From NCBI GenBank assembly GCA_046582655.1, contig JAYGDX010000259.1, positions 5,250 through 69,249 on the forward strand: a DNA stretch of 64,000 nucleotides, written 5' to 3'. Shown piece after piece: positions 1,431 to 41,986 of the stretch. Position numbers and translations under genes: made by a program. The DNA comes from Candidatus Poribacteria bacterium. GTDB lineage: Bacteria > Poribacteria > WGA-4E > UBA9662. Below the pieces are notes generated by a model, which saw nothing but the letters and a program-made list of their open reading frames with translations, had not been told where the DNA came from and made no database searches. The first letter of the stretch is position 1. Each line of letters starts with the position of its first letter.

Positions 1431-1483
1431 CTTTATAATGATATATACTATGCGCGAGCCAGAGGTTTTGTCAAGTCTACCTG

Positions 1484-2227
1484 GTGAGTATGGAATTAAC
1501 ACTAGTGAAACTTAACCAACTGTCATGGTCACATAAAATTGTTGTCAGTCTGTTTGTATTAATGATGGGGTACTCCTATCTCTTTGCCCAGCTTAACCTG
1601 CAAATTAACACGCGGCGGGCAGACGGGGATACAAGTGGCTTAGGCTTAGCAACAATCCGTGATATTGAGATCACTTACCGAGGAAATCGAGGACGAACCT
1701 TGCTTGGTAGCAAGATTAACGGTTCTATGGAGCAATATTTGTCAAGCCAAGAGGAAAAGATCTCTATCGAAGAGTGGATCGCACAAGGTCGTACAGAGCA
1801 GGGATATCAGGAAATCCAATATATATTTGAGGACAATTGCATTAGTTGCCATCCTTATGATGAACGCCCAGATTATCCTTTAGAAACTTACAAACAGGTT
1901 TATGCTTCTGCTGAACCTGATATGGGGCCGTCAATTGGGTGGCTGGCGCGATTTACACACTATCACGCTTTTGGTTTCGGAGTTTTCTCATTTTTACTTT
2001 CAATGATTTTCTTACTTACCTCCTTTCGTCCAACTATCCGACTGTTCGGTGCAGTACTCCCGTTTGTAGCCATGTTTATCGACATTACATCTTGGTGGTT
2101 AACCCGTTTGATTAGTCCCATCTTTGCCTACACTGTATATCTTGGTGGTATGTTGATGGCAATTTCGTTAGCAACCATTATCATTGGTTCGATCTACGAC
2201 ATCTGGTTTAGTCAAGTGACTGAATGA
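1484..2227 (+). CDS. Membrane protein with an N-terminal anchor, one CxxCH (CISCH) c-type heme-binding motif, and three or four C-terminal transmembrane helices.
   Basis: 247-aa ORF. The hydrophobic segments (VVSLFVLMMGYSYLF and FGFGVFSFLLSMIFLL, FGAVLPFVAMFIDITSWWL, IFAYTVYLGGMLMAISLATIIIGSIY) are read directly from the translation. The CISCH motif sits in the soluble middle domain. Confidence 0.6.
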   Translation: MSMELTLVKLNQLSWSHKIVVSLFVLMMGYSYLFAQLNLQINTRRADGDTSGLGLATIRDIEITYRGNRGRTLLGSKINGSMEQYLSSQEEKISIEEWIAQGRTEQGYQEIQYIFEDNCISCHPYDERPDYPLETYKQVYASAEPDMGPSIGWLARFTHYHAFGFGVFSFLLSMIFLLTSFRPTIRLFGAVLPFVAMFIDITSWWLTRLISPIFAYTVYLGGMLMAISLATIIIGSIYDIWFSQVTE

Positions 2228-2780
2228 TTAGAAGTTGTTTTAGAAGTAAAAAAATAAGTTTGCGTCGTTAAATGTCTTCTTCGTACTATGCTGTAAAAGG
2301 AAATTTTTATGGTATAAAGAGAAAAATTTATCGCGGGTGACCAATGGAAAGAAAACTTTGCGGATGGTAGTTTCGCTTCAGCTAAAAAGGGAGCTTCGGT
2401 GTTACAAAGAGCAAAGACGGAAAAGGTACGAAGTGGATGGTGGTATCTGATGGCAAGGGGATATGTACCCTTATTCTTTCGGTGCTGATTTCGATTCGGC
2501 CCCGCTGGGTGAGGTAAAGTTATTGGAAGGATTGCAGTTCCGAGAATTTGGCTTGGCCATCCCAAAAGAACTGGCTAGGATTATTGCTGGCCGACCCGCT
2601 CAGTGAAAGGTTCGGCCAGCGTGACCTCGAATTTGTTATGCCGAAGAAAAATGTCGGAATAGAGGTTGAATATGGCGATACGGGTATGATTGACTTGGAT
2701 ATGGTATGTCAGATGGCGCTAAAGAAGCAACGATAGCAAGGCAACGTCATTCCATATCGATGCCGAGGTACTTGGGTAAG

Positions 2781-4859
2781 TTAGAGTAGTTTGTCCAGGT
2801 CACCAACATCAGTTGTCGGTAGCTGGCAGGCGTAGTTCTGGCAAACATAGATCGTTGTCTTCCCATCAATTGACGTTTTGCTGGCTAGTAGCGGTATCAG
2901 TTCTTCAATTTTCTGCCTGTCTTCTGTATTTGGATTCAATAGGGCGACCACTTTATTAGGAACAAAGCGGCGATGGATATCCTTCAGAATTTCTTGTGTT
3001 TGTTCGCTTAATGGATTGCCGATGATAGCAATTTCTTTTGGAGTGTCAATTAGAAAATCAACTCCGCATAGCATCTGAGCTGATCCGGATGGTGCCGTTT
3101 TCATGGCGTGATCATAGAGTGAGAAAGTGGTCTTCGCTTTCTCAATCAAGTCGGGTTGGTTGAGAAGTATGGCTAGCCGTAACAGAACGTGAATAGCCAT
3201 TGAAGCACCGGACGGCGTAGCCCCATCATAAGCTGACTTGGAACGGACAATCAGTTCTGGATAATCTTTTCCGGTAAAGAAAAAACCGCCGTTTTGAGGA
3301 TCCCAGAATTGGCTGATCATGATTTGATTAAGTCGATCTGCTTCTCTCAGCCAGTAGGGATCAAAGCTGGCTTGATAGAGTTCGATTAGCCCTGCAATGA
3401 AATAGGAATAATCCTCTAAACAGGCGTTCAGATGACTCTTACCAGCGCGATGAGTTCGCAATAAATGCCCATTTTTTCGTACAAGTTCAGTCAGGATGAA
3501 TTTGGCTGATTTTTCGGCAGCTTCCAGATAGCGTAGATCACCCAGTATTTGGTAAGCAAGTCCCATGCTGCGGATCATTAAGCCGTTCCAACTAGTCAGG
3601 ATTTTGTCGTCTAGTCCAGGTTTGATTCGTTTGTCTCTGATCTCGAAAAGTTTCTTTTTACATCTATTTAGAATATTGACTAAATTAGCTTGATCAATTT
3701 TTATTTTTTTTGCATATAAGTCAGCCGGGGTTTTGACCCAGAGAATGTTTTGGTGCTCAAAATTGCCGTGGTCGGTGACATCGTAGAAATCGCAGAAAAT
3801 TTTGGCATCGGCTTGACCAAGAATCTGCTCAACTTCACCCGGTGTCCAGACAAAGAATTTCCCTTCCACTCCTTCACTGTCGGCATCCTGAGTGGAATAG
3901 AAACCACCATTTTGCTGATTGTACATTTCGCGTAAGACATAATCTAGTGTTTCTTCAACCACTTCTCGGTAAAAAGGTTTGCTGGTGGCTTGGAATGCTT
4001 CCAAATAAGCAACAGTCAGAAGTGAGTTATCGTAGAGCATTTTCTCAAAGTGGGGAACTAACCATATTTCATCAGTCGAATATCGGTGAAATCCACCTCC
4101 GAGTTGATCGTACATTCCGCCTCGCGCCATCTTTTCCAAGGTGAATTCGACTATATGCAGTGCCCGTGAGTTTCCTGATCTTTTCCAGTATCTCAATAAC
4201 AAAATCAATCCCATTCCGGGTGGGAATTTTGGTGCCTGACCAAATCCTCCATGTTGACTGTCAAATCGGTTTTGATAGTGATAGAAAGCCTGTTCGATAA
4301 TCTTGTCATCCAATAATAAATCGTCTACACTTTTCGGGTTAGAAATTTGGTTGATATGAGACACTAATTTTTCCGCTTGTTCATCAATATCTGCCCGTTT
4401 GTTTTGATAGGCATCCTTAACAGCCACCAGTAGTTTGGGAAAGCCGGGGCGTCCATACCGATCGTCGGGAGGGAAGTAGGTTCCGCCATAAAATGGTTTC
4501 CGATCTGGTGTCAAAAAGACTGTCATGGGCCACCCGCCGGAACCGGTCATAATTTGAACGGCACTCATATAAATCTCATCCAGGTCAGGTCGTTCTTCTC
4601 GATCGACTTTAATATTGATGTAGTGCTTATTCATGATGGCAGCAATCTCTTCGTTTTCGAAAGATTCCCGTTCCATGACGTGACACCAGTGGCAAGCAGA
4701 ATAGCCAATACTCAGCAGAATCGGTTTGTCCAGCTCTTTGGCTAGATTCAGCGCTTCTTCACCCCAAGGATACCAATCTACAGGGTTATGAGCGTGTTGT
4801 AACAAATATGGGCTGGTTTCATCGATCAATCGATTCGTGTGTTTAGGCGTGTTTTTCAT
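2781..4859 (-). CDS. Thioredoxin-domain protein of the DUF255/YyaL family (N-terminal thioredoxin fold plus a six-hairpin glycosidase-like domain).
   Basis: The 692-aa ORF begins ...[53 protein letters not shown].., the diagnostic N-terminus of this family. Its length and C-terminal region also fit. Confidence 0.9.
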
Positions 4860-5195
4860 GTTGGGAATCTATGCTTTTGCAATGCAATATTTGAAAAGTG
4901 AACTTGCAAATTTCCGACTATAGGCCAATAATGCTATGGCGATTATATCACCTTTCTGATGAAATGAGAAATCTGTTTACCAAATTGCATCTAGTAATCT
5001 ACTGTCTCTGATCTTTTCTAGAAATTGTACTATGGTAACTGCACACGAATTTTTACTTGTGATATACTGAGGATTGTTCTTTTGGAGATGTTCCTTTTGC
5101 TGCGTTTAGATGAAATGATTGCTGTTGGCATGAAGGATAAGTTCTTAGTACTATTACGATATTATCTAAGTTAAAATTGCAAAATAAGAATTGGG

Positions 5196-7097
5196 GTGCC
5201 CATGCAACCAAATTTGAACCAATCTACAGACGCTTTGTCAAATAATCAGATCATTTACTGGGATGAAGATGATCAGATTTCACACTTGTCACCTCAGGCT
5301 AGGCGCGTGGTACAGGTTGCTTGCGAATATGCCGATCGGTTTACTGATCCGAAAACAGGGATGGTTGAAGGGGATGAGCATCCGGGGCCAGATACTAGAT
5401 CCAGCTTATACTGTGCTATCGCCTTTCTGCTGAGTGGAGAGCCGAAAAGGATCAAAGCCGGCAAAGAACTATTGAAAAAAATTGGTAGCGCCGGAGGACA
5501 TTTCAACATGATGGCTGAGGCCTTGGCACTTGCTCAAATAGATCCGCTTCTGGATGACGAAGATCGGAAAAATTTCCATCAGGCAATTCGAGGCTTTATT
5601 GATTCAGATGGTGAGGATATTATGGCGGGCAGAAACATCAATATCCCGCTTGGTAACTGGACCGGACGAATTATAGCAGGTGTCATGTTTGATAGATTGG
5701 ATCATATTGATAGAGGGATCGAAGCACTTGAAAAGTTAACGGACATGGTTGCTGCACACGGCACTATCCCTGAATTTAACAGTCCTACCTATCACCCAGT
5801 AACGCTAATTTTACTGAGGATCATCTGCTTGTTCGGTGAGAAACGCACCATTCATCTGGCCGAGAAATTGGAGCGTCACCTCTGGTCTGAGATGGCGTGG
5901 CGATGGCACCCTAGAATTAAGCAGTTGTGTGGTCCATGGAGTCGAGCCTATCACGACAGTCTCTTCGGGGGATCGGGTATTGTCTTGATGCTGGCTGACA
6001 TGATGTGGGGGGCCTTCTATGATAAAGAGGTTGCTTATGATTATGAGCATGGTCATGATCATGCTTATGGTGGAATTCTCCCATTGTTAGCGCATCGTCA
6101 TCCGGTTGATGTCAGTGAAATCGCTTTAAGAAAAAAAACGCCAGTTACTATCACGGCATCGGCTGAACAGGCGATGGTCAAACTGGGAAACGAAGATGTG
6201 TTGACATGGATTCCTGGGGGCATTGCTGATCTAACAACTTGGATGGATGATAACCTTTCGGTTGGGACTGCGTCCCAAGCACATGTCCACGGTATGCAAA
6301 ACGGTAATTATATCGCTCAATGGACGCGAACTGGAAAACCAGTGGAGAAATTATCAGATTTGGGACAGGCGTTTGCTCGGTTTGTCCAAAACGGTAAAAG
6401 GCCAGGGACAGATGTTAGGAACCTATATCGGAACCATCATCATGGGGGTAACTTTGATATTGGCCCCAAACTTTGGGGCGATGATGGCCGTCCCTTTGCC
6501 ATTCAGTCCGGGCCGACGGCTTTGATCATATATTTACCGAAAAGGCAAGAAAGGTGGACTGTACAAACGTTAGAAGCGTTTGTGGTTTTTCCCAGATTGA
6601 ATACTATTGACGATGTAATTGTCAATAGTATTCAATCTGTTGACACCTACCAAGGGGCAGCCGAAGGCACGGTAGTCGTTCGAAGTGGTCATGCTTCACT
6701 GGGTCTTTGTTTCGTTGCCTGCGACCCTGAACTTACGACTCCAAAACTGGTAATCGAACGCCAAAACGATCATCTTTTTGTCGGATTACGTCTGATTGAG
6801 TTTCCGGATATGCGTGAATTGCCCGAATCGACTTACCGTCGTTATGGGGCCACGATTGGTGCTGAACTTCGTTATACGCCAAAGGGACAAGACGTTAGGA
6901 AATTGATCGAGGATCTGTCTACTGCCCGATTAACTGACCAATGGGAGATGGCAACCTTTGGTGGACCTCAGGAGGTTGAATTCCAGATTGGTACAACTCA
7001 GTTATACGGGCGTTTTGAACCGATCTCAGAAACCTGGTTACGACGGACCGTCACAGATCCGGTTGGTGATATCCGAAAAATTCAATTTACTAATTAG
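5196..7097 (+). CDS. Hypothetical cytoplasmic protein, possibly an alpha/alpha-toroid (heparinase II/III-like or alginate-lyase-like) fold.
   Basis: 633-aa ORF with no signal peptide. The segment NWTGRIIAGVMF...HGTIPEFNSPTYH resembles the N-terminal toroid region of heparinase II/III-like proteins; this is inferred from motifs only. It is the first gene of a tightly spaced plus-strand series (gaps of 47, 21 and 83 nt) running to 9561. Confidence 0.6.
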   Translation: MPMQPNLNQSTDALSNNQIIYWDEDDQISHLSPQARRVVQVACEYADRFTDPKTGMVEGDEHPGPDTRSSLYCAIAFLLSGEPKRIKAGKELLKKIGSAGGHFNMMAEALALAQIDPLLDDEDRKNFHQAIRGFIDSDGEDIMAGRNINIPLGNWTGRIIAGVMFDRLDHIDRGIEALEKLTDMVAAHGTIPEFNSPTYHPVTLILLRIICLFGEKRTIHLAEKLERHLWSEMAWRWHPRIKQLCGPWSRAYHDSLFGGSGIVLMLADMMWGAFYDKEVAYDYEHGHDHAYGGILPLLAHRHPVDVSEIALRKKTPVTITASAEQAMVKLGNEDVLTWIPGGIADLTTWMDDNLSVGTASQAHVHGMQNGNYIAQWTRTGKPVEKLSDLGQAFARFVQNGKRPGTDVRNLYRNHHHGGNFDIGPKLWGDDGRPFAIQSGPTALIIYLPKRQERWTVQTLEAFVVFPRLNTIDDVIVNSIQSVDTYQGAAEGTVVVRSGHASLGLCFVACDPELTTPKLVIERQNDHLFVGLRLIEFPDMRELPESTYRRYGATIGAELRYTPKGQDVRKLIEDLSTARLTDQWEMATFGGPQEVEFQIGTTQLYGRFEPISETWLRRTVTDPVGDIRKIQFTN

Positions 7098-7144
7098 AGT
7101 TGAGTTACTTATTAACACAATCCCAAGTGTGAAAGGAAGGATTT

Positions 7145-7921
7145 ATGGTAGATCAACGTAATATTGTTGGGATCGATGCCCAACAACTATTATCATCGCC
7201 GAAGGCCGTTGATTATTCAGGCATGGTACTGATTCCCAGCGGAACCTTTGAAATGGGCGGTCAAGAGATGGATAACGAACAACCTGTCCATACCGTCGAA
7301 ATTTCGGCTTTCTACATGGACGTTAGTCCGGTAACTGTTGGGCAGTATAGGCAGTTCGTTGAAGACACCGGATACAAAACGCCTAATTGGCGTGATATTT
7401 TAATCGATTCACCAACCGATGATCATCCAATTATCTATGTAAATTGGCATGATGCGATGGCCTATACACAATGGGTGGAGAAGAGGCTGCCGACAGAAGC
7501 AGAATGGGAATATGCTGCCCGTGGCGGATTGGATCGAGCTGAGTTTCCACGGCCAAACTTAGATGAAGATCCGCATAATAGTTCTGAATATGCCAATTAT
7601 TATGGAACGGTTCGCCAAACGAACATCGGTGGAACTTATCCGGCCAACGGTTATGGTCTAAATGATATGGCTGGGAATGTTTGGGAATGGTGTTTGGATG
7701 CTTATGAGCAGGAATTCTACGCTAAAAGTCCACAACGGAATCCTCTTGCTATTGGGGAAGATGAAACAGACGGGAATTTGATAAAACGCATGTATCGTGT
7801 GGTACGTGGTGGAAGTTGGAATAACTATTTCGGTGCGCTTCGCGTGGCTTTTCGTGGATACCAAGATTCTTTACGTGATTACGATTACAATGGATTTCGA
7901 TGTGTTTGCAGTGTCGTGTAG
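7145..7921 (+). CDS. FGE-sulfatase (SUMF1) fold protein that lacks the catalytic Cys pair of genuine formylglycine-generating enzymes.
   Basis: The 258-aa ORF has hallmark FGE-fold segments (MVLIPSGTFEMGG, YMDVSPVTVGQYRQFV, IYVNWHDAMAYTQW, NGYGLNDMAGNVWEWC, RVVRGGSW, GFRCV). The position that carries CHRSYCYRYR in true FGEs reads NNYFGALRVAFR, with no cysteines. The EgtB-type HX3HXE iron motif is also absent. Confidence 0.85.
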   Translation: MVDQRNIVGIDAQQLLSSPKAVDYSGMVLIPSGTFEMGGQEMDNEQPVHTVEISAFYMDVSPVTVGQYRQFVEDTGYKTPNWRDILIDSPTDDHPIIYVNWHDAMAYTQWVEKRLPTEAEWEYAARGGLDRAEFPRPNLDEDPHNSSEYANYYGTVRQTNIGGTYPANGYGLNDMAGNVWEWCLDAYEQEFYAKSPQRNPLAIGEDETDGNLIKRMYRVVRGGSWNNYFGALRVAFRGYQDSLRDYDYNGFRCVCSVV

Positions 7922-7942
7922 ATTAGGAAATTAGGAGGGTGG

Positions 7943-8698
7943 ATGGCCAATTCACAGGTTTTATCAACAGATCAAATCAGTTTTTTTAAAGAGAGCGGAT
8001 ACCTAATTCTAGAGAACTGCATTGAACCAGATCTTCTGGCGACTTGGCAGGAACAGTTCTGGTGGTGTTTAAATTCAAGCTTTGACGATCCGGACAGTTG
8101 GCCAACCGATCAAACTTTTATTGGTCGATGGCGTTTTACACCACCTTGTCCAAACATTAGTGCTGTTCCTATGGTTCAGGCTGCTGCTGATCAATTAAGT
8201 GGTGGCAATTTCATCGGTGGAGGTGGTGCCCCAATTATTAAGTGGCCGGATTCCGATGGTCAATGGTCGTTACCGAGGAGCAGCCATATTGATGGTTATG
8301 GCCCACCCTCCCAGCATCCGGAAGGCGGTTTAGTGCTTGGGGCAACCACCAATCTTCATGATGTTGAATCGAAAGGCGGCTGTTTTGTATACTGGCCAGG
8401 TAGCCATCTGTCAACATATGATTATCTCGTTCGGCATCCGGAGCAAATTAATGGCAGTTTTTTAGATAAGGAAGGTTGGAATTACACCGAATTCTCCAAG
8501 GGGTCTACTGATGGACCGACTGAATTTCACGCACCTGCCGGTACCGTCATCTTATGGCATGGGTTCATGTGTCACAACGGATCGCCGAATGTGAATACAA
8601 CGCCTCGCATTGGTATCTTTGGCCGCTGGCACTACAAAAAGCTTGAAGAGATGCGATATGACATTCTGGACGATCTCTGGAAACACTGGGGCATTTAA
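7943..8698 (+). CDS. Phytanoyl-CoA dioxygenase (PhyH) family Fe(II)/2-oxoglutarate oxygenase.
   Basis: The N-terminus FFKESGYLILENCI, an HxD motif (SSHIDGYG) and a distal His (WHGFMCHNGSPN) are all present in the 251-aa ORF. Confidence 0.85.
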   Translation: MANSQVLSTDQISFFKESGYLILENCIEPDLLATWQEQFWWCLNSSFDDPDSWPTDQTFIGRWRFTPPCPNISAVPMVQAAADQLSGGNFIGGGGAPIIKWPDSDGQWSLPRSSHIDGYGPPSQHPEGGLVLGATTNLHDVESKGGCFVYWPGSHLSTYDYLVRHPEQINGSFLDKEGWNYTEFSKGSTDGPTEFHAPAGTVILWHGFMCHNGSPNVNTTPRIGIFGRWHYKKLEEMRYDILDDLWKHWGI

Positions 8699-8781
8699 GC
8701 TTAAGCTTACAACTATGATTCAAACCAGTTAAACACTGGTCAAAAGCTACTTCAACAAGATCTCGATTAGGTCTCAGGTTT

Positions 8782-9561
8782 ATGAGTACGCTGTCAAAAC
8801 AGGAAATTCTTTTTTTTAAAGAAGAAGGCTATTTGGTTAAACGGGATGTCCTTGATCCTGAACTAATGGCATATGCACGCGAACGCTTATGGGAAGCGGC
8901 GCCTTCACAACTGAAGCGTGATCGGCTTGAAACTTGGATTGGCCCATTTGAAGAAAGGTGTGAAGATAAAATGTCGTATCGATCCGGATACCGGTGGAAT
9001 TATCGTCAACTTGGTGGTGAACCCTGGATGATTAGACTTCTACCTAAAAATCCATCGGTATGGTACATGGCGGAGCAACTATTGGGCAAAGGAATGCTAC
9101 GTGAACCAGATCGAGTTCGCGGTATTTATTGTACTTTACCCTACGGTGATGTGCCGAAAAAGCCAAGTGGTTGTCACGTTGATGGACATCCGTTTCATCT
9201 TGGTGTCGTTGGCTATATTGACGATGTCCCGCCGGAAGGTGGAGGGTTTATGGTCTGGCCGAAAAGTCACCTGAAGTTTTATTATGACTTCCATTCTCAA
9301 TATAGGACAGAACCAACCGATCAGTATGAAAAAGATCGAGCCTGTTTCAGTCAACAGGCAGGTGTTGATTGTCATGGTCGAGCTGGAGATATCGTCTTTT
9401 GGCATCATCGAGTTGGTCATGCCGCCGGTCATAACTATTCATGTCAGATTCGACAGGCGGTATTATATGATTTCAGAAAACAGGATATCGAACATACAAT
9501 GGAGGAATCCCCTTGTCAGAATATGTGGCGAGATTGGGCTGGTGTTGAAAGGAGTAGTTGA
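8782..9561 (+). CDS. PhyH-family Fe(II)/2-oxoglutarate oxygenase, paralog 2.
   Basis: The N-terminus FFKEEGYLVKRDVL, HxD (GCHVDGHP) and a distal His (WHHRVGHAAGHN) are present. The 259-aa ORF ends in a TGA stop. Confidence 0.85.
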   Translation: MSTLSKQEILFFKEEGYLVKRDVLDPELMAYARERLWEAAPSQLKRDRLETWIGPFEERCEDKMSYRSGYRWNYRQLGGEPWMIRLLPKNPSVWYMAEQLLGKGMLREPDRVRGIYCTLPYGDVPKKPSGCHVDGHPFHLGVVGYIDDVPPEGGGFMVWPKSHLKFYYDFHSQYRTEPTDQYEKDRACFSQQAGVDCHGRAGDIVFWHHRVGHAAGHNYSCQIRQAVLYDFRKQDIEHTMEESPCQNMWRDWAGVERSS

Positions 9562-9675
9562 TTCAAGAATCGTTTTTAATTATGTACTAGATGAATTTGA
9601 TCTGCCGAATTGAATATTCCAGTTCATACTTGTGCTTTATGATAGTGATTCTTATTTGACAAACTGTTTTTGAAT

Positions 9676-9705
9676 CACCTACTAAGAGCTAGGTGAAAAT
9701 TTTTG
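9676..9705 (+). terminator. Candidate intrinsic terminator: hairpin caccta-ctaagagc-taggtg followed by AAAATTTTT.
   Basis: A 6-bp perfect stem with an 8-nt loop, then an A4T5 run, lies 115 nt downstream of the PhyH-2 stop and upstream of the thioesterase-like gene. The stem is short, so this is weak. Confidence 0.3.
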
Positions 9706-9796
9706 CCTCAAAGATCATCTTAAGCTTCAGTTTGGTATCAGTATCAATAACCAGTAGATGAACGTCGAACTTGAAATTATTGGTCATTCCTAAGCA

Positions 9797-10240
9797 ATGC
9801 GTGATTACATCCAAAAAATTATAGATCAGGAAATTCCGATTGCCCGAAAAATGGGCATCAAGGTCAATTCTTATCTTCCCACCAGAATCGTCCTTGACAT
9901 TCCTCTTCGGGCTAACAGAAATCATCGGCATACTGCATTTGGCGGCAGTATCTATTCCGGGCTAGTTTTGGCCGGTTGGTGCCTTCTCATCGGAAATTTG
10001 CAAGCGAATAATTTAGCCGGGGATGTAGTAATCCAGAGAGGGGAGGTTGAATATTACAGACCGATAAATGATGATTTTGAAGTGGCTTGTGCTTTGGCTG
10101 ATATGGACCAAATTTCATCTTTTCTGGATAGATTTTCGCAGAAGGGTAAAGCCAAAATAATGCTTAATTCCACAATTAGGGTTAGAGATGAGTTACTGGC
10201 CGAATTTACGGGCAAATATGTCGCGTTGGCTAACCATTAG
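9797..10240 (+). CDS. Hotdog-fold thioesterase-like protein (YiiD C-terminal domain-like).
   Basis: The 147-aa ORF contains HTAFGGSIYSGLVLAGW... and then a conserved EV.Y core, typical of small PaaI/YiiD-type thioesterase-fold proteins. Confidence 0.65.
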   Translation: MRDYIQKIIDQEIPIARKMGIKVNSYLPTRIVLDIPLRANRNHRHTAFGGSIYSGLVLAGWCLLIGNLQANNLAGDVVIQRGEVEYYRPINDDFEVACALADMDQISSFLDRFSQKGKAKIMLNSTIRVRDELLAEFTGKYVALANH

Positions 10241-10969: not shown

Positions 10970-12967
10970 TTATTCACCCAATGCGTAAACTACAAATTCA
11001 TGATTTTGATACAGTATGGGAAAGTTAAGTTGGTGCTCCTTACCTACCACGGCCAATGAAACACCATACTTTTCTCGCAGTTGCTGAAATCGTGCTTCAT
11101 TGAATGATTGGTAACCGTCAAGTTCTTCCATTCGTGACCACCAAATTTTGGCATAGCGCTCAGAGAAGACGCAAGGAGCACCGTCCTTCCAGTCACCAAC
11201 ACTGCTTCGGCGGGAGTGGATGCGAAATCCTGTTGTCTTGGGGGGAACGAAAAATGTTGATTCCACGGGTGTATTCGTCTTACACCACTGTCCCACATCA
11301 GCCCAACTACTAGGCGGCAATTTGCCCGGAAGGTTGACGTGATGTATCAGTTGTCCTCTTATTAGGACCTGATCCAGCTTGCTGGAATTGAGCATCAGAA
11401 GTGCTAGAACAGTAGTTAAGATTATACCTCCGGCAGCAAAATTTTCTACCTTTCTCAAGTTCCTACACTTGGCCAGAAAACCAACTAGCTTAACGAAAAT
11501 GAGTCCGGCTAACACCAGCCAGAAGATGTTCCAGCTTAACGCCTCAGCAAAGAATCGGCGAAAAGCCCAGATAACTGATAGCCAGATAACGCTCCCAATG
11601 ATGAGACTGATCCAAGTGAAAAGAGTCCTTCTCTTCGGGGCAGGGGAAAGGCGCGCAAAGTGAAAACAGATACACCAGCAGACTAGCGTGACACTTCCTA
11701 ATATCAACTGATGATGTGATCCACTTGTAAAAAGCGAGGCTACCAGGGCAATTATCAATGCGCCAGCCAGCGAACCGACAAACGGGCATGCGACACGAAA
11801 TGCGAAGTAAAATTTTATCGGCTGGTTGGTAGGTTGGCTGGCTAATGTGCTAATCGGGGATCTAGACTTTTGATAATGCTGAAACCCCTCCCACAAGAGC
11901 CAAGCGGCGTAAATCATTGATAAATTGACAATCAGGTGGAGGCCACGTAGTATCTGTAACTGTACGATGAGCGGTAGCGGATACCATTCAACAAATGCAC
12001 TACCGATGAAGAACAATCCAACGCAGATAACCACCACACCAAATGCCCAGAAGTTCGTCTGTGGAAAGATCGTGCTGTTTGTATTGGTATGAGTATCAGA
12101 TGGTCTTCTATGGCGAAAAAAGAGTATAGCTAGCAGAATAACTGTGTAAGCGACTAGCGATAGAAAGGCCTCGCGATTCCATACAGAAATGAAAATATAG
12201 CTATCGCGTTCTTTAATAATCTCTAGCCACTGTGGGTTGGATCGAGAGAAAGGACTTAAATCGGAGTGGCTAGCACGGTCGATCAGGAAAACGCGAATTA
12301 CTAGGGGAAGGATACAAACTGTAAACACGCCAAGTGCCTTCGCCGGCAAACGCCAGCTCTGACAAAATGTTTCAATTAATAATCTGAATCCTAACAGGGA
12401 AATTAGGGGGACCGCCGTAATCGGATGGATCAGGAAAACGACGCCGCAGATTATAGCGGCAAGTATAGACCGACCTCGGAAATAGGGGATCAGAAAGGCG
12501 ACTGCCAAGGGCATTGCTGTTGAGCGGAGAGTAAGGAAGATGTCTTGCGTAGCCGTGGCTGTTCCTCCAACAGGTTTGGGGATGACAAGAAAAAGCACGG
12601 CCAGCGCGGCTGCCCCGCGACTGTTGAAAAGATTCAAGGAAAGATGGTAAATCGCCCAAAAAAGCGCAAAACGTGTCAGTATATAACCAAGAAAGAAAAT
12701 CCATTCCAAGGGAAAGAATCGAGCCAACGTGGCCATAGCCAGTATCCAAAAATTGTACTCCCCCGATGGTTCATCGAACAGATAGTCTCTTGGAAAGAGA
12801 TCTGGGTTCACCAAGCGGTCAATCATCGGGATGTAAAACGCGTGGTCGTTGAAGCCGTAACGATAACCGTTGACCAGTAACCCGACAGCCGAGATCAGTA
12901 GGAGGAATACAATTACCCGAGGTTGTTTTTCGATTCGGATATTATTGGTTTGAGTTGACATGGTCAT
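10970..12967 (-). CDS. Large polytopic membrane protein of unknown function (665 aa, at least 12 predicted transmembrane helices plus a roughly 150-aa soluble C-terminal domain).
   Basis: Hydrophobic helices occur throughout the translation. The first extracytoplasmic loop, YRYGFNDHAFYIPMIDRLVNPDLFPRDYLF, is reminiscent of GT-C-type membrane glycosyltransferases, but no firm family assignment is possible. The stop is TAA. Confidence 0.7.
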   Translation of the reverse strand: MTMSTQTNNIRIEKQPRVIVFLLLISAVGLLVNGYRYGFNDHAFYIPMIDRLVNPDLFPRDYLFDEPSGEYNFWILAMATLARFFPLEWIFFLGYILTRFALFWAIYHLSLNLFNSRGAAALAVLFLVIPKPVGGTATATQDIFLTLRSTAMPLAVAFLIPYFRGRSILAAIICGVVFLIHPITAVPLISLLGFRLLIETFCQSWRLPAKALGVFTVCILPLVIRVFLIDRASHSDLSPFSRSNPQWLEIIKERDSYIFISVWNREAFLSLVAYTVILLAILFFRHRRPSDTHTNTNSTIFPQTNFWAFGVVVICVGLFFIGSAFVEWYPLPLIVQLQILRGLHLIVNLSMIYAAWLLWEGFQHYQKSRSPISTLASQPTNQPIKFYFAFRVACPFVGSLAGALIIALVASLFTSGSHHQLILGSVTLVCWCICFHFARLSPAPKRRTLFTWISLIIGSVIWLSVIWAFRRFFAEALSWNIFWLVLAGLIFVKLVGFLAKCRNLRKVENFAAGGIILTTVLALLMLNSSKLDQVLIRGQLIHHVNLPGKLPPSSWADVGQWCKTNTPVESTFFVPPKTTGFRIHSRRSSVGDWKDGAPCVFSERYAKIWWSRMEELDGYQSFNEARFQQLREKYGVSLAVVGKEHQLNFPILYQNHEFVVYALGE

Positions 12968-13140
12968 CCATTGAACTCAGAGCAATCGGGTTGGAAAGTT
13001 ATCCTCTGTTCGATTCCAATGTTTAAATGTTGTCATTGATTTGTTCCTTTTTGATCTAATTATTTGTCATCATGGCCGACGAGTGAACAATTGATTCTAC
13101 AGAATTCTAATTTCTTCTAATCCTTTCAGCCACACGTCTT

Positions 13141-15117
13141 TTATGCACCGGGTAAAGCATGACGGTAATCTACGCCGGTAAACATCCCAAGAATCGTCCA
13201 TATTCCAACAATACAATACTCACCTAGTATCAATCCTATAAATAATGGTTTATAGCGCCGATAGATGCTGATACCACCAGTTTTCAGTATCACGTACTTC
13301 AAAAGCCAGCCTATAAACATCGAAGACCAAAGAAAGTATGAAGAGTAGACTGCTCCCATCACATATCCAATTGGGTGAAGCTGCCACCAGATAAAATGAT
13401 GTCGCATCATCAGAAGCAAAGTCGTGATGCCGAACCCTAAAACCATGCTGTACACTTCGCCCCATTTTGTTCCCTGCGGATACTGGATTAAGGAAACAAT
13501 ATGGTTGAAGTATCTTGGCGCACCTACAAATGGTCCTCTTTGCAGATTCAGACCGCCTTTGTCGTAGACCAAAGGTAAAAAAGCGACATAGGAAACCCCA
13601 ATTGTAACCAGCATGGCTATTATCATTGCTGCTAACAAATCCCTTCGATTTAAGCTCACCGGATCGGTAATTTTGAAACCGTGCAGGATATTCGGCATCA
13701 TAATCTGTCCCCAGTCACGCATCATAACTCTTTGAAATCCTAAGAGCGTTAAACTGCTAGAGTCTATTTTTCGAGTGCCGACTGTTACTTCGAAATATTC
13801 TGAGGGATAAATTGGCGCTTGAATTAGCAGCATACCACCGTTGACCACCATCCATGTCAAGGAGGTAGAGATAATGAAAAAGATGATGATAATGCTTAAT
13901 GCTACCCATAGTGTCATCCCTGCGTATGTACATAGACAGCCGAGTAAAAGACAACCACCGATCAACCCTATCAGCGCCAACCGGTAAGATAACGGTTCGC
14001 TAGAATCGTCGATCTCGTTACTTCGTAATGACAAGGTTTTTTTCAAAATGTTTTTGAGATGAGATCTGCTTTTGACCAGGAAAGCGACAGTTAGGACCAG
14101 ATAGACTGACATGGTCTGACCTCTGGCGGAGATCCAGGGATTAATCGGAATCGAGTAAGTATTGATAATGAGATACTGAAGTTTGAAAAACAGAAAGAAA
14201 AACCAACAGCTAAACGAGACTTCCAAAGCAAGCAAATAGGTAATGCCGATAACAGAAAAGTAGAGAAACAACCTGAACTGGGGCCACCAACCCATTACAA
14301 TCCATGGTCTTCCGATAAATGGTTTATAGAGGTCGTATCGATTAGGAATACGAGGCAGAGCAGGAAAATACTCGTGCAGGCCGTTGAGTATGTGAAAGGT
14401 GGCGGCAATCAGAAAACCTATCCACATCAACTTTTTTTTAAACAACATGCTAAAAAGCTTGTTTTCAGCAGTGGAATAAACCATTTCCGCTGAAACAGAC
14501 GCCAGTGGAAAGTCGAATCGTTCATGTTCAACCCACTGTTTCCGCAGAATCACGGACAAACAAATAGTCACAAAATACAGAATGATGATAAAAATGCTCC
14601 AAGCGATAAGCGGTTTGGTCCAAACACTCCACGGAACTGACACATCGCCTTCGTAAAAATCTTCCACTGCCCTGATATCCCAGACTACCAGCCACTCTGG
14701 CAGGTGCGGGTGGAGGACTTCTTTCCATTCGTTCTCTGGTTTTGCAAGATAAAGAGGTGCCACCAAAAATGGTATCAAGAATCCCATCATCCCTTTAGAG
14801 GGAATGGCCGAACTGACCAACAGCATTATCCAGATTGTAATCAACTCTCCGGGGGTTAGTCTTCCACTTATAGGCATGGCTTTTTTTATAAATGGGTTGA
14901 TTCCAAAAGTGAGAAAAATCAACACAAATGCTGCTCCTAGAGGAAAATGACTGCCGGAGATTTCTGTGCCTTGAATATAATAATCGTTATAGGGCGTAAT
15001 TGCTGTTTGAACCACGGTGAATCCTAAACCTATGATAATAGCTCTAGGGCTCACCCTTGAAGTTAGCCGATTTTTCATCTTTCTCAAGTCATACGGAGAG
15101 TGAAGTGGACTAGACAT
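13141..15117 (-). CDS. Large polytopic membrane protein of unknown function (658 aa).
   Basis: The ORF has many hydrophobic segments and Trp/Tyr-rich interhelical loops. It sits 173 bp upstream of the 10970..12967 gene on the same strand. No recognisable catalytic motif is seen. Confidence 0.7.
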   Translation of the reverse strand: MSSPLHSPYDLRKMKNRLTSRVSPRAIIIGLGFTVVQTAITPYNDYYIQGTEISGSHFPLGAAFVLIFLTFGINPFIKKAMPISGRLTPGELITIWIMLLVSSAIPSKGMMGFLIPFLVAPLYLAKPENEWKEVLHPHLPEWLVVWDIRAVEDFYEGDVSVPWSVWTKPLIAWSIFIIILYFVTICLSVILRKQWVEHERFDFPLASVSAEMVYSTAENKLFSMLFKKKLMWIGFLIAATFHILNGLHEYFPALPRIPNRYDLYKPFIGRPWIVMGWWPQFRLFLYFSVIGITYLLALEVSFSCWFFFLFFKLQYLIINTYSIPINPWISARGQTMSVYLVLTVAFLVKSRSHLKNILKKTLSLRSNEIDDSSEPLSYRLALIGLIGGCLLLGCLCTYAGMTLWVALSIIIIFFIISTSLTWMVVNGGMLLIQAPIYPSEYFEVTVGTRKIDSSSLTLLGFQRVMMRDWGQIMMPNILHGFKITDPVSLNRRDLLAAMIIAMLVTIGVSYVAFLPLVYDKGGLNLQRGPFVGAPRYFNHIVSLIQYPQGTKWGEVYSMVLGFGITTLLLMMRHHFIWWQLHPIGYVMGAVYSSYFLWSSMFIGWLLKYVILKTGGISIYRRYKPLFIGLILGEYCIVGIWTILGMFTGVDYRHALPGA

Positions 15118-15271: not shown

Positions 15272-15780
15272 TCAATGCTGACGTAGTGGATGATCTACTA
15301 GCAAAGACCAATCCGGTTGATCTTCCGGATTGTTGAGTGCTCCATGGGCGTTTCGGATAACTTGGCGTTGATTGTCGTACCAATCGCTGTAACTTGTGGC
15401 AGGATGCACATCGTCGTTTCGCATGACTAGTAGTTTTCGGAGTGAGTCATCTAGTTTTCTCCTGATTTTTCGGACTTTCGGCTTTTGCATCAAATTGTGC
15501 ATCTGAAGCGGATCGGTTTCTAGATCGTACAATTCTGTCAATCTATCTCTCCAACGTGTGTAGTTATGATGTGTTGTCCGAACACTATGTCATTCCTAAC
15601 CATCGACTCAGTAGTTGTGAGTGACACCAAAGTTCATGGTTAAGACAGCTTCCTGCTCAAACGTGCCTGACCTGCCCAGCCGAGCGTCTGAGAAATCGTA
15701 TCCTTCGATATTACGCGGAATTGGTAGATCTAAAAAACCATTTAACGATGGAAACAGATCAAGAGTCATGGAAATAAATT
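15272..15780 (-). pseudogene. Sulfatase C-terminal remnant (the N-terminal catalytic two-thirds is missing and the rest is frameshifted).
   Basis: One minus-strand frame gives ...TLDLFPSLNGFLDLPIPRNIEGYDFSDARLGRSG... (the sulfatase DLFPTLLDLAGIP...GRSL region) and stops at 15603. A second frame (ORF 15272..15541) gives NYTRWRDRLTELYDLETDPLQMHNL, the sulfatase ELYDL.DP.E..NL C-terminal motif. Upstream sequence is occupied by the end of gene 15893..18115. Confidence 0.6.
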
Positions 15781-15892: not shown

Positions 15893-18094
15893 TTACCATG
15901 GAAAGTTGTAGGACGGTTTGTGGACGAAACGCTTTGTGGTGATGTCAAGCTTTATCTGCGACTGTGGTGGCAGGTGAACCGTCAAGCGTGTACCGTTTAC
16001 AGGCAGTGACGCCTCCTCCTCCAACTGAGGTTGGTACGCTGCGTCGGCAAACTCGTGCTCAGCGTAGGTACCGGCCTGAACAATTACGTCTTGTGAATGT
16101 GTGAGACTGAGGTTGAGCAGATGTAGGACAGTGCGATCCGACGCCAGCTCAGAAACCAGAGCTGCAACATCCGGTGGCAACCCCGGCCGCTTGTTCATCG
16201 GGTCGAAGTGACGTACGCGCGCCATCAGCAATCCACCGTTGTAGAATGGCAGTGGCGCACCCATGGTCAGGTTAACTAGCCCCTCGACGCTGACCGGATT
16301 GCGGTAGATAAGGCTGAACCCATCGTTTTCTTTCGGCTGATGCTGGCGAATCTCATCCAAGCGGCCGTTCACCTGCGCAATATTGTATTTCAGGATCTCT
16401 TCTGGATATGTCGGATATGTGCCGTCTAGATAAGCCTGCCAGGCGGCTTCGTGCCCACCGTGGTCCTTGGACATAAAACGGCTGATCGATTCGATCCTCT
16501 CCCAATCGCGGGACCAGCGTGCCTCAGGATCATGATTGCGGATTTTCTTAGAGCGCTCAAGGTCGGCCAGATCCATTGACATATTCCAGAGATGTGCCGG
16601 ACCAACCGGGTCCATGGGCATAAACTTAAACCAGCCGTTGACTTCTTGGCACGTCCCATCAGGATTTCGCAGAACCGGGAGGAACGACAGCGGTGCATTG
16701 ACCACCTTTTCTGGGTCGCCGTGCTTGTGAGGGACATAGACTGTATTATTCTTGGCGATACCTAACCCAATGAGCAAATCAATCTGGCTACGCAGCAGGT
16801 CGAGGTAGACGGAATCACCAGTCACCAGCAACGCATTTTCGGCGGCCATCCCCGTGGATTGAGCGTATCCGCCCCATCCATGGTAGACAGTCCAGCCGTA
16901 GTAGCCACCATGCCACTTGCCGTTGATGTATTCACCAATCTTGCCTGATAAGCCGACATTGTCGGGCAAGATCCCCCCGTTCTCCTGCACTCTCTTGATC
17001 CAAGCGTTGGTATATTCCGTGATCCACGTGCGATACTTATCCTCACCCGTGGCCAGGAAAGCGTTGAGCATAAGGCTAGTAACAGCCAGGTTGATAGGAC
17101 CATCGCCACGTCCCCACCGGGCATGCGCTACTGCTGCCATCTTCTTCATGTTATCATCTGCGTTCAAATCGGCGTAGCTAGCAATACCTGGCACATCGTA
17201 GAACGGAAGTCCATAGTGCTCCATAGTCCAGACGTACTCCCAAGGCTTGTCGGGCGTCCACGGTAGCGGCCCGTTGCTGCCAGTTTGGGTGTTGAGGATC
17301 AGTTTGTGGTCAGGATCGTAGTTTTTCACGTCGGGATTTTCGTTCAGGTAGAGACCAGCGAAACGCTGAGCACGATCAATAAATTTTGGGTCGGATGGAT
17401 CGGCTAAGCATAGCATATAGAACAGGTGACAACCTTCACCGAGATGAAACCAGTCGCCGCAGCGGTGGAACTCATTGTCCAGAGTGCCGTTGTCGGCAAA
17501 GTGACGAGTGATGGCCTCCCACTGTCGCTTGGCAAGTGGGAGGAAACGGGCATCGCCACCGAGCGCGTAGAACGTTGGCCAATTGTGGAACGTCTCGTAA
17601 GAATCGTCCAGTTTGCCCCAACAATTGTACCGGAAAGAACCATCGTCCTTCAGGTACTTCTCAATGAATACGTCGACGGATGTGTTCATCTGGTCGATAA
17701 GCTGTCGCTGTAGCACAGCCCATTCCGGAGGTTGGTCGAATGTCATGGTTGCATCAATGTGCGGGATGACACGGTCATTAGCTGCCCAACACCAGCTTGA
17801 GCAACTGAACACGAGGATTACTGCCAGAATACACCCAATTGTTTTGCCAAGTCGTGATCTGCCATATCTGGTCATATATTCCTCGTTATGTTTCAATTTA
17901 GCACAGTTAGGTATTAATTGATTCGCTCGAACTGGAAGCCGCGCGAGGCATCTTGAGCGTCCATGCGTAAAAGTCGAACTGCCCGGCCATATCCTTACCC
18001 ATTCTTGTTGTGTTAGTCGCGCGATAGCGAAAGCAGGTAGGAGAAAAAGTATAGCTGTGGTCAGCACCGACAGTCGCTTGAGTATGTGTGTCAT
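15893..18094 (-). CDS. Hypothetical secreted protein of about 730 aa (start uncertain between 18094 and 17875).
   Basis: The long ORF has two consecutive signal-peptide-like segments. MTHILKRLSVLTTAILFLLPAFAIA begins at the ATG at 18094 (RBS ACGGAGA). MTRYGRSRLGKTIGCILAVILVFSCSSWCWA begins at the ATG at 17875 (RBS GAGGAA). The Trp/Gly-rich body (GGYYGWTVYHGWGGY) suggests a carbohydrate-active enzyme, but it is unassigned. Confidence 0.65.
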   Translation of the reverse strand: MTHILKRLSVLTTAILFLLPAFAIARLTQQEWVRIWPGSSTFTHGRSRCLARLPVRANQLIPNCAKLKHNEEYMTRYGRSRLGKTIGCILAVILVFSCSSWCWAANDRVIPHIDATMTFDQPPEWAVLQRQLIDQMNTSVDVFIEKYLKDDGSFRYNCWGKLDDSYETFHNWPTFYALGGDARFLPLAKRQWEAITRHFADNGTLDNEFHRCGDWFHLGEGCHLFYMLCLADPSDPKFIDRAQRFAGLYLNENPDVKNYDPDHKLILNTQTGSNGPLPWTPDKPWEYVWTMEHYGLPFYDVPGIASYADLNADDNMKKMAAVAHARWGRGDGPINLAVTSLMLNAFLATGEDKYRTWITEYTNAWIKRVQENGGILPDNVGLSGKIGEYINGKWHGGYYGWTVYHGWGGYAQSTGMAAENALLVTGDSVYLDLLRSQIDLLIGLGIAKNNTVYVPHKHGDPEKVVNAPLSFLPVLRNPDGTCQEVNGWFKFMPMDPVGPAHLWNMSMDLADLERSKKIRNHDPEARWSRDWERIESISRFMSKDHGGHEAAWQAYLDGTYPTYPEEILKYNIAQVNGRLDEIRQHQPKENDGFSLIYRNPVSVEGLVNLTMGAPLPFYNGGLLMARVRHFDPMNKRPGLPPDVAALVSELASDRTVLHLLNLSLTHSQDVIVQAGTYAEHEFADAAYQPQLEEEASLPVNGTRLTVHLPPQSQIKLDITTKRFVHKPSYNFPW

Positions 18095-18433
18095 AGTTAG
18101 TCTCCGTTTTGGCATCTAAATCGTGGTGTTTCAGAAACAGCATCTGCACCACCTATCTTTCGGGGTCAACGTTGATCTTCGGCACAAAATATGATTCCCG
18201 TGGAATCAACCATACAATTAAGTTGCAGTAAATGCCAAATGCACCCAATTCACTTTTAAGTTAAATTACATTAATTCGTTCAGATTGTCTAAATTGGCAT
18301 GCTGAAGCAGGATAGCCCCTTGACCTGGAACAAGGTAACCAGATTGATCGATGCTTTAAACATCATATGGTTGGTTCGAACGTGGACCATGAATTAGCTA
18401 CTGTTCCCTTCTGGATCAAAGAAAAAAGATGGG

Positions 18434-23097: not shown

Positions 23098-24306
23098 TTA
23101 TATTGTGTTTTCTAAAGGACTTTGCGGTTCCTTACCGAATATATGGGTGATTAAAGCAGCCAAAAGGGCGATAATGGATGAAATCCTAAACATCACAAAT
23201 CTACCGTGTGTTTTTTCAATCCCACCACATATTTTCCCCCCGATCATCCCACCCAATCCCCAAACAATACCACTGTATAAAGTTTGTCCACTGGCACGAA
23301 CCTGATCCGGCAACATGGTACTGATGAAGTTAACGATTCCAATATGAAAGGCAGTATAAGTTAGCGCATGAAAAAGTTGCAGAAACAAGATCGCGATTAT
23401 TGATGGTTTCAGCGAATAGAAAAATAATCTCATGGCCATACCTAGCATACCGATAATCACTATCCATTTTATTCCGGTCCATTTTATTAGATTACCGATA
23501 ACAAACATCATCCCAATCTCTGATGCAACGCCTAATGCCCAGAAGAATCCCTGTGAACTGTCAGGGACTCCAAGATCTTCAAGATAAATTGAAAAGAAAA
23601 TATAATAAGCCTGCATAGCTGCCCTGGCCATTAACCCTGTAATCAAAGTTAATACAAAGTTGACGGTGATAAAGCGGTTGAGCTGGTTCCATTTGAAAGG
23701 TTCTCTAACCTCCACTTCAGCAGGATTTGGAATCATCAGTACCCACACGACACCTAATAACCTAAAAGTACTGAAAAATATAAATACCGATAATAGTCCA
23801 TAGCCAAACTCTGAGGTGATGTTTCCCTCGAACTCGTCCTTAATCATCAACTTAAATAGGAGCATTGAAATTCCAATTCCAATCGATCCCCAAAGTCGTA
23901 TTCGGCCGTAGTCGCCCCCATGTTGCTTAATGAAACCCAACGTCAGTGCATCATTGATCGGGGCAACAGGCGTTTCCAAAAAGGAAAAAAGCATAATAAT
24001 ACCCAATATAGCATAATAGTTTTTTGTAAAAAGCAACAATGGGTATACCAAACTGGCAGACAAGAAAAGCAGAGCTATGATTCGTCTCATGTCCTTGACT
24101 GAATCAGCAACAATCCCCCAAATTGGCGAGGAGAATATGCTCATGAATGAAAAGATGGCAGCAACGGTTCCAAGCTGCGAACTATTTAACCCCGCACGCT
24201 TTAGGTAGAGATTCATGTAGATGAGTATTCCACTTTTTGGACTAAGCGAAATAAAGTGGAGCAAGCTATAATGGCGGCGGGAACTTTTATTAGTAATTTC
24301 TGTCAT
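23098..24306 (-). CDS. Major facilitator superfamily transporter.
   Basis: 402-aa ORF with about 12 hydrophobic helices and the MFS loop motif (GIVADSVKDMRRII). The start is ATG and the stop TAA. Confidence 0.85.
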   Translation of the reverse strand: MTEITNKSSRRHYSLLHFISLSPKSGILIYMNLYLKRAGLNSSQLGTVAAIFSFMSIFSSPIWGIVADSVKDMRRIIALLFLSASLVYPLLLFTKNYYAILGIIMLFSFLETPVAPINDALTLGFIKQHGGDYGRIRLWGSIGIGISMLLFKLMIKDEFEGNITSEFGYGLLSVFIFFSTFRLLGVVWVLMIPNPAEVEVREPFKWNQLNRFITVNFVLTLITGLMARAAMQAYYIFFSIYLEDLGVPDSSQGFFWALGVASEIGMMFVIGNLIKWTGIKWIVIIGMLGMAMRLFFYSLKPSIIAILFLQLFHALTYTAFHIGIVNFISTMLPDQVRASGQTLYSGIVWGLGGMIGGKICGGIEKTHGRFVMFRISSIIALLAALITHIFGKEPQSPLENTI

Positions 24307-24400
24307 TGGAAGAATATATTTCAGCCAGAAGCTTGAAACTTCAAAGAAATTAGATTTGATGTAATGCCTATAGCATACAGGAAGTAACGAATGGACTAAC

Positions 24401-41841: not shown

Positions 41842-41986
41842 TGTATTTTGGTCACATCTGGTAACGCACGTAACCAAGCCTCCTATACCTTAATCGTCAA
41901 CTATCAAAAATTAAGTGAATTCTGTGATTATAAAACAGCAATATTAGTAAAGTCAACAGGTTTTTGAAATGAACTCAGTGGAAGAT

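Follow-up and report, generated by a model that had tools for sequence, protein, structure and literature searches.

The DNA analyzed here (the window) is a stretch of 64,000 nucleotides in which two neighboring genes, referred to as A and B, encode polytopic membrane proteins. The host of both genes is a Candidatus Poribacteria genome. The features discussed are as follows.

10970..12967, minus strand: gene A, 665 aa, downstream gene of the pair, an intact ORF for a polytopic membrane protein
12968..13220, minus strand: the 173-nt spacer between B and A together with the final ~80 nt of B, a block that stays with A where B has been lost
13141..15117, minus strand: gene B, 658 aa, upstream gene of the pair, an intact ORF for a polytopic membrane protein
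15272..15763, minus strand: remnant of a sulfatase gene, ~140 C-terminal codons interrupted by three in-frame stops and lacking the catalytic N-terminal part
23098-25792: a sulfatase followed by an MFS sugar symporter (MFS LacY / nucleoside-H+ symporter-like)

The list of ORFs places A and B on the same strand with a gap of 173 nt, and a first-pass annotation of this DNA had located the two intact ORFs exactly. Alignments with homologs suggest that the true start of B may lie ~13-21 codons downstream of 15117, because the homologs align from residue ~22. Both proteins are polytopic in AlphaFold models and both are strongly conserved: in other Poribacteria, A has 30 relatives and B has more than 629. 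The annotation had seen no recognizable signature in either protein. This stands for named families, and an NCBIfam scan of A and B returned no family; profile searches of PDB sequences with family alignments of both proteins gave chance-level matches only. It does not stand for Pfam, which gives DUF6798 for A, and DUF6785 and DUF6784 for B. A search of the literature on these three domains found no paper.

The AlphaFold model of A has the GT-C membrane fold, with an N-terminal module of several transmembrane helices, a long first extracytoplasmic loop and juxtamembrane helices, as had been suggested for the downstream protein from its letters. There are ~15 transmembrane helices in total, followed by a soluble C-terminal DUF6798 domain at ~540-665. 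The loop YGFNDHAFYIP...DRLVNPDLFPRD and the soluble C-terminal domain (~125-150 aa) singled out in the first-pass annotation are both present in this 665-aa protein. The Pfam match to DUF6798 spans residues 554-616 (49.3 bits, E 3.9e-13, above the gathering threshold of 26.9 bits), and the domain is carried by 83/83 sampled members of the A family; in another protein (P0027) it is fused to a GH10 domain. An insertion of four helices (~386-501) is missing from some homologs. Among 22 close relatives, the loop-1 aspartates D41 and D61 never vary, and D65 is conserved in at least 90%. In a wider set of 83 sequences, reaching down to 21% identity, conservation of D61 is still at least 90%. This conservation places D61 (and D41/D65) most likely at the active site.

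The nearest known systems to A are the GT-C enzymes STT3/PglB/AglB, PMT, ArnT, ALG and Aft. Unlike these, A falls below the Pfam threshold for PMT_2 (PF13231; 16.3 bits, E 0.012, gathering threshold 26.1 bits), has no WWDYG motif in its C-terminal soluble domain, where only a conserved DWKDG at 592-596 is found, and carries DUF6798 as that domain. Matches to PMT_2 do occur in 9/22 close members (E≤0.1, best 3.6e-5) and in 3/83 members of the broad family (E≤0.01, best 3.7e-7). From the model and the conserved residues we infer that A is most likely a lipid-linked sugar transferase of a large, uncharacterized GT-C family. The donor for A would be a sugar linked to polyprenyl phosphate, and the acceptor would face the periplasm. 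A GT-C-fold protein could also be a non-catalytic scaffold (PIG-U/GAB1-like), or a polymerase- or ligase-like protein (EpsG/Wzy), and we regard such a role for A as unlikely. With A read as a transferase, the several thousand proteins labeled ‘DUF6798’ are now placed among the GT-C glycosyltransferases. LamG_3 genes found upstream of A homologs in two loci (L001, L005) were considered as partners of A and set aside, as the same genes are common beside B homologs and elsewhere in Poribacteria.

Gene B is matched by DUF6785 over residues 24-521 and profile positions 2-498 of 498 (488.4 bits, E 3e-146, threshold 25 bits) and by DUF6784 over residues 556-651 (105.8 bits, E 1.5e-30, threshold 26.4 bits). 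A Foldseek search with the model of B (pLDDT 89) matched HvYS1 (PDB 7wsr/7wst) only, with a TM-score of 0.63-0.71. The model contains the core and scaffold domains of the YS1-type fold and ~15-16 membrane helical segments. By this structural prediction, the fold of B is the one seen in the OPT/Yellow-Stripe superfamily (TC 2.A.67), whose members are proton-coupled importers of elevator type. Basic residues conserved in B are R192, K312, R351, R379, K482, R572, K607 and R620. The plant protein HvYS1 is a proton-driven symporter of the iron-phytosiderophore complex, for which an elevator-like mechanism has been proposed (PMC9691689). OPT members are widespread in prokaryotes, where genome context predicts peptide transport (PMC3061005).

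The resemblance between B and these transporters lies in the fold. Identity is ~10-12%, the Pfam OPT family matched 0/64 members of the B family at E≤10, and the HvYS1 structure 7wsr was not recovered by profile searches of PDB sequences. The OPT topology of 16 TMS is made of internal repeats (Gomolplitinant and Saier 2011); a profile-profile comparison of B with itself detected no internal repeat (best repeat probability 0.8%). Unlike YSL transporters, B and its relatives are bacterial, largely from Poribacteria, and annotated only as DUF6785/DUF6784, and they lie among genes for sulfatases and sugar-acid enzymes, not those of peptide or metal-chelate metabolism. The DUF6785/DUF6784 family is large and expanded in Poribacteria.

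These folds bear on the proposal in the first-pass annotation that the tandem pair forms a two-gene system for envelope glycosylation or polymer export, with A as GT-C transferase and B as its flippase- or polymerase-like partner. The fold of A, the shared strand and the short gap are all compatible with such a system, and the adjacency already existed in the ancestor shared by the window and four related contigs, in which a relic of B persists. The part assigned to B does not fit, since its fold is that of an OPT/YSL importer and not of MOP/Wzx, GtrA, Wzy or SEDS proteins. Conservation of the adjacency, on which the annotation had staked the proposal, is also absent from other genomes: 0/80 Poribacteria B loci have an A homolog within 10 kb, and 0/22 other A-bearing contigs carry an intact B. 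The four related contigs (L004, L096, L101, L105), in which A is 81-91% identical and intact, have lost B by a deletion that left only its last ~80 nt. They align with the window at ~76% identity in blastn with a common breakpoint at window position 13220; in L004 the relic corresponds to residues 633-658 of B (tblastn), and L096 is syntenic with the window on the far side of A. The conserved partner of B is a sulfatase, as described below. It is therefore very improbable that A and B make up one such system, and as a search for an undescribed glycosylation or export system the practical outcome is negative.

The kind of system that had been envisaged is the CsbB/GtrB-GtcA-YfhO type. In this form of extracytoplasmic glycosylation, a GT2 enzyme makes the polyprenyl-phosphate sugar, a flippase moves the sugar and a GT-C enzyme transfers it. 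The surroundings of one A homolog (L003, 41% identical), with Bac_transf, GT2 and YfhO-like genes, resemble it, and Bac_transf and GT2 as neighbors in L003 are the one hint from gene context that A would use a polyprenyl-phosphate-linked donor. The window differs: genes for a GT2, a Bac_transf or a GtrA-like flippase are missing from the vicinity of A, and B is not of flippase type. A polyprenyl-phosphate sugar transferase near the pair, which the annotation had proposed to look for, was not found among the flanking genes scanned (~2.8-32 kb of the window). These flanks contain DsbH-like, FGE, PhyH, thioesterase, amidohydrolase, sulfatase, MFS and SDR genes. Among the ORFs scanned at 33-52 kb are arginyl-tRNA synthetase, BatD, a dcw cell-division cluster (40-49 kb) and a dockerin-domain protein; neither set includes genes relevant to A.

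The block at 12968..13220 is kept beside A in lineages without B, and therefore it probably carries the promoter of A. It includes a weak promoter-like site at 13087-13059, and scanning the region for promoters and terminators gave nothing informatively above shuffled background. Based on these genome comparisons, the best reading is that A and B are functionally independent neighbors rather than one system.

Analysis of B homologs across Poribacteria points to a different association. In 55/80 loci a sulfatase gene lies directly upstream of the B homolog on the same strand, including 34/38 loci in a clade at 48% identity and 21/35 in a clade at 66%. At the other positions of the same 80 loci sulfatases account for 15/1007 genes (1.5%), so that the pairing is ~46-fold above background; the loci come from related genomes and these counts are not independent events. 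The gap between the sulfatase and B has a median of 109 nt, and some of the genes overlap. All of the partner sulfatases (55/55) have CTPSR at ~residue 53 and are of the Cys-type. None of the 55 has a signal peptide, other than two loci in which the longest-ORF call appears to be over-extended at the 5' end, and they are predicted from sequence to be cytoplasmic. Other neighboring genes belong to carbohydrate and sulfate catabolism. An MR_MLE (enolase-superfamily) dehydratase is present at +1 or +2 in 26 loci of the 48% clade, GHL10 is found among the neighbors, and in two loci (L008/L009) the B homolog is embedded in a gene cluster that encodes sulfatases, arylsulfotransferases and a fucosidase.

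Because B has the fold of an importer superfamily and the homologs in its two large sister clades are placed just downstream of a cytoplasmic sulfatase, often with a dehydratase next, we infer that the most likely role of B is uptake of a sulfated metabolite, which would then be desulfated in the cytoplasm. The cargo would be small, organic and sulfated. Sulfated sugars, sugar acids or oligosaccharides derived from the matrix of the sponge host are the probable candidates, and the partner sulfatase would remove the sulfate once the molecule had entered the cytoplasm. This arrangement is similar to sulfated-glycan operons in the polysaccharide utilization loci of marine bacteria, where a sulfatase is coupled to a transporter and followed by sugar-acid catabolism. 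It differs from them in that the transporter belongs to an OPT-fold DUF family, not to the MFS, ABC or TonB/SusCD types, and in that the linked sulfatases are predicted to be cytoplasmic.

A more conventional view of B would be that of a canonical OPT importer of oligopeptides or metal-chelates, with the neighboring sulfatase reflecting inherited synteny and not function. The cargo of its sole structural relative and the peptide transport predicted for prokaryotic OPT members are in line with this. So are the distant B paralogs (~30% identity), which lack sulfatases and instead adjoin an ABC-2/GldG-like transporter or follow gltX; from these unrelated contexts it follows that sulfated substrates are not the rule for the entire B family. 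Inherited synteny accounts poorly for a pairing so far above the local sulfatase background, and for its presence in two B clades that are ~50% identical to each other, with partner sulfatase subfamilies only ~30% identical and other flanking genes that differ. In addition, the neighbors are MR_MLE, GHL10, fucosidase and arylsulfotransferase genes rather than peptidases or siderophore genes. Conventional OPT cargo thus seems rather unlikely for B.

The direction of transport must also be considered. Linkage to a cytoplasmic sulfatase would fit removal of a product equally well, and secondary transporters are able to run both ways, so B could be an exporter of sulfate, of the desulfated product or of a sulfated metabolite. 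Yet a cytoplasmic sulfatase needs its substrate to be imported, and the operon contains no conserved importer besides B. Characterized OPT/YSL members are proton-coupled importers, and the analogous sulfatase and MFS pair in the same window (23098-25792) points to uptake. Export by B is accordingly judged improbable. Taken together, the explanation that we consider likely is that A and B are independent, with B a putative importer of sulfated metabolites and A a putative GT-C transferase.

Poribacteria are dominant, uncultured symbionts of sponges with large repertoires of sulfatases. We know of no explanation for how sulfated substrates reach those of their sulfatases that lack signal peptides. 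The OPT/YSL fold of the abundant DUF6785/DUF6784 proteins, along with their linkage to cytoplasmic sulfatases, provides a testable candidate for this uptake step. A tentative proposal, to which we give somewhat less than even weight, is that the family is an unrecognized branch of the OPT/Yellow-Stripe superfamily, expanded in Poribacteria and recruited to import sulfated host metabolites for dedicated cytoplasmic formylglycine sulfatases. If true, the OPT fold would gain a new class of substrate beyond peptides and metal-chelates, and a main uptake route for sponge symbionts feeding on the sulfated matrix of their host would be identified.

In the six loci nearest to the B of the window (~72% identity) the upstream sulfatase is absent, a point against this association. 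The window itself retains the partner sulfatase as a decayed pseudogene remnant beside an intact B, a point in its favor. Within the remnant, an ORF at 15272-15541 (89 aa) matches Pfam SGSH_C, and tblastn of B-linked sulfatases against the window aligned ~15440-15763 with sulfatase residues ~330-475 (E 4e-8 to 1e-6). The stops TGA, TAG and TGA are read in frame directly from the sequence. With its sulfatase gone, the B protein of the window may have changed in role or be on the way to loss.

Two intact genes lie in tandem on the same strand and encode proteins of 665 and 658 amino acids, here called A (downstream) and B (upstream); the spacer between them in the ORF listing of the window is 173 nt. 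Judging by the names of homologs and by the 80 best matches among genomes, the window comes from Candidatus Poribacteria, a group of uncultured symbionts of sponges. The first-pass annotation, which described the pair correctly, called both proteins unassignable and suggested that, if A is a GT-C enzyme, B could be its flippase- or polymerase-like partner in an envelope glycosylation or polymer-export system. Half of this stands: the GT-C reading of A is upheld, and the role given to B and the idea of a joint system are not.

Features of the window
5196-9561, plus strand: cluster of a 633-aa protein (no Pfam match), an FGE-type formylglycine-generating enzyme and two PhyH-type dioxygenases
7145-7921, plus strand: the formylglycine-generating enzyme of this cluster
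10970-12967, minus strand: A, intact ORF, 665 aa
13141-15117, minus strand: B, intact ORF, 658 aa
15272-15763, minus strand: sulfatase pseudogene, C-terminal ~140 codons left, three in-frame stops
15893-18115, minus strand: 740-aa ORF, no Pfam match, abutting the truncated sulfatase and ending at 15893
23098-25792, minus strand: intact sulfatase (Sulfatase + SGSH_C), then an MFS_1_like / LacY / nucleoside-H+ symporter-type transporter
26165-27061, plus strand: third PhyH
40441-49082, minus strand: standard dcw cell-division and peptidoglycan cluster (murD, ftsW, murG, murC, ftsQ, ftsA, ftsZ)
49120-52125, after the dcw cluster: dockerin-domain protein, 1001 aa

In Pfam, B matches DUF6785 over its full length (E 3e-146), with DUF6784 as a second domain (E 1.5e-30), and A has DUF6798 at its C-terminus (E 4e-13), along with a PMT_2 match below threshold (E 0.012). 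Searches of NCBIfam, PDB sequences and the literature add nothing to these assignments for either protein. A structural model of B, built from an alignment extended with a paralog clade of ~30% identity, has a pLDDT of 89.4 and a pTM of 0.91. Its sole Foldseek matches are 7wst and 7wsr, both of the Yellow Stripe 1 transporter HvYS1 (probability 1.00, TM-score 0.63-0.71). HvYS1 is a proton-driven symporter with core and scaffold domains, for which an elevator mechanism has been proposed; no structural homolog of the fold was known at the time the structure was determined (PMC9691689). Proteins of the OPT family are widespread in prokaryotes (PMC3061005). Pfam OPT has no match at E<=10 in any B-family member scanned, and a search for an internal repeat in B found none. 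The structural matches make B a transporter of the OPT/Yellow-Stripe fold, a link invisible at the sequence level, and B is therefore neither unassignable nor flippase- or polymerase-like. We have not found this placement of DUF6785/DUF6784 on the OPT/YSL fold in the searchable literature.

The gene context of B was analyzed by clustering all ORFs of 80 B loci into families. A same-strand sulfatase (PF00884 + SGSH_C) lies immediately upstream of B in 55 of the 80; elsewhere in these loci, sulfatases account for 15 of 1007 genes. Sulfatase and B are separated by a median of 109 nt, with a 4-nt overlap in some pairs. The pairing occurs in 34/38 loci of the clade of B homologs 48% identical to the window protein and in 21/35 of the 66% clade. 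Between the two clades the sulfatase subfamilies share only about 30% identity and the other flanking genes differ, so the coupling is either ancient or was assembled twice. This cross-clade argument is stronger than a binomial P, which overstates independence among loci from related genomes. In all 55 partner sulfatases the CTPSR formylglycine motif falls at about residue 53. The catalytic domain stands at the very N-terminus with no signal peptide before it, so the enzymes are predicted to be cytoplasmic; the exceptions are two loci where the longest-ORF call appears over-extended at its 5' end. In the 48% clade GHL10 precedes, and 26 loci have an enolase-superfamily (MR_MLE) dehydratase at +1 or +2. 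The B homolog of L008/L009, with 51% identity, is embedded in a cluster whose genes share one strand and encode four sulfatases, two arylsulfotransferases, an alpha-L-fucosidase, and a glycyl-radical enzyme with its activase. No sulfatase is present at the six loci nearest to the B of the window (about 72% identity); three of these carry a convergent paralog of the DUF6785 family instead. More distant paralogs (about 30% identity) occur in unrelated contexts, so the substrate range of the family is probably broad. This conserved coupling to putatively cytoplasmic sulfatases in Poribacteria, also not found in the searchable literature, is together with the fold assignment the more interesting outcome of the analysis.

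The window itself holds a decayed copy of the canonical sulfatase-DUF6785 pair. Directly upstream of B, an 89-aa ORF (15272-15541) matches SGSH_C, and partner sulfatases of other loci align through their residues ~330-475 to window 15440-15763, across the three stops; the catalytic N-terminal two-thirds is missing. This remnant occupies the very position that intact sulfatases take ahead of B homologs in other Poribacteria. The neighboring 740-aa ORF, which has a single tblastn match among the first 89 loci (L001-L089), lies in a stretch with a G+C content of 0.53 against about 0.43, the sole markedly rich one in the window; the ORF may be a later insertion or a horizontally acquired gene that displaced the 5' part of the sulfatase.

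From the fold, family memberships and gene linkage, we infer a pathway in which B would be a proton-coupled importer of a small sulfated organic molecule, the partner sulfatase would strip its sulfate in the cytoplasm, and downstream enzymes (dehydratase, reductases) would catabolize the product. The sulfatase-MFS pair at 23098-25792 shares this sulfatase-then-importer layout and, by analogy, supports such an import-then-desulfate principle; its sulfatase is probably cytoplasmic, as its domain begins at residue 4.

Several genomes have at least two B homologs (for example OZ241378.1, OY282374.1 and CBDBPM010000002.1, with two matches each), and at L010 (11983-13989, minus strand), L011, L044 and L007, which are among the loci of about 72% identity, a second, about 30%-identical DUF6785 paralog is convergent just downstream. 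More than 570 B matches come from species-representative genomes, and Poribacteria show a strong expansion of the family. The contig of a 75%-identical B fragment bears the label of a Gammaproteobacteria MAG (JAKZRU010000111.1); since every other close match is from Poribacteria, this is probably a binning error, not horizontal transfer. PhyH genes recur beside B homologs (ORF family 10).

Adjacency of A and B is not conserved. No A homolog was present within 10 kb on each side in any of the 80 Poribacteria B loci, and the B gene was absent from six contigs bearing A homologs (41-81% identity) and from 15 further A loci in a metagenome scan. The partner is also missing on the contigs of an 83% A homolog and a 73% B homolog. 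In L096, which is one of the metagenome loci and is syntenic with window block 2781-10240 beyond A (YiiD-like thioesterase, two PhyH, FGE, 633-aa protein and DsbH-like protein; 86-95% identity), other genes occupy the place expected for B. L004, L096, L101 and L105 (A 81-91% identical) still have the 173-nt spacer and the final ~80 nt of B, and their homology to the window begins at one identical breakpoint, 13220. B therefore stood beside A in their common ancestor and was lost by a single deletion that kept A intact with its upstream region. Deletion of B beside an intact A is direct evidence that A is independent of B in cis, and the two do not form one system; a lack of conserved adjacency is what the first-pass annotation had itself named as refuting its proposal. 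Between the window and L096, A is only 81% identical but six flanking proteins 86-95%, so A seems to change faster than the genes around it.

The AlphaFold2 model of A (22 homologs, pLDDT 76, pTM 0.83) and the conserved aspartates of its first loop make it a candidate GT-C-fold enzyme. This loop (residues 34-86, after TM1) is modelled with two short helices, and its D41 and D61 are invariant among close relatives. When 1.84 billion cluster representatives were searched by profile, 4531 relatives came up at E<=1e-3, of which 428 reached E<=1e-30. Among 83 sampled from these, with identity down to 21%, all have DUF6798, three match PMT_2 and one GtrII, and D61, H181, R341, R582, R587, D595, G596 and W609 are at least 90% conserved. 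As the WWDYG motif is absent, A was not filed as an oligosaccharyltransferase. Given an N-terminus of positive charge and a count of about 15 TM helices, DUF6798 is probably periplasmic; residues about 386-501, absent from some homologs, form four helices, an even number, so the domain stays on the same membrane side. The fusion of DUF6798 to a GH10 domain in P0027 fits a carbohydrate-facing role. A is most likely a periplasm-facing transferase using a lipid-linked sugar, with one contextual support in L003, where a 41%-identical homolog adjoins Bac_transf, GT2 and YfhO-like genes. This locus (228-9516), the sole context found that resembles an envelope glycosylation locus, also has a Ser/Thr kinase and a methyltransferase, and its A homolog has no four-helix insertion. 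Several A homologs are directly preceded by genes for small Laminin_G_3 (concanavalin-like) proteins (L001 6897-9725, L005 7811-8611, L006 694-1458), which also occur, as ORF family 7, downstream of B in some loci; these may be surface proteins abundant in Poribacteria, or possible targets of glycosylation.
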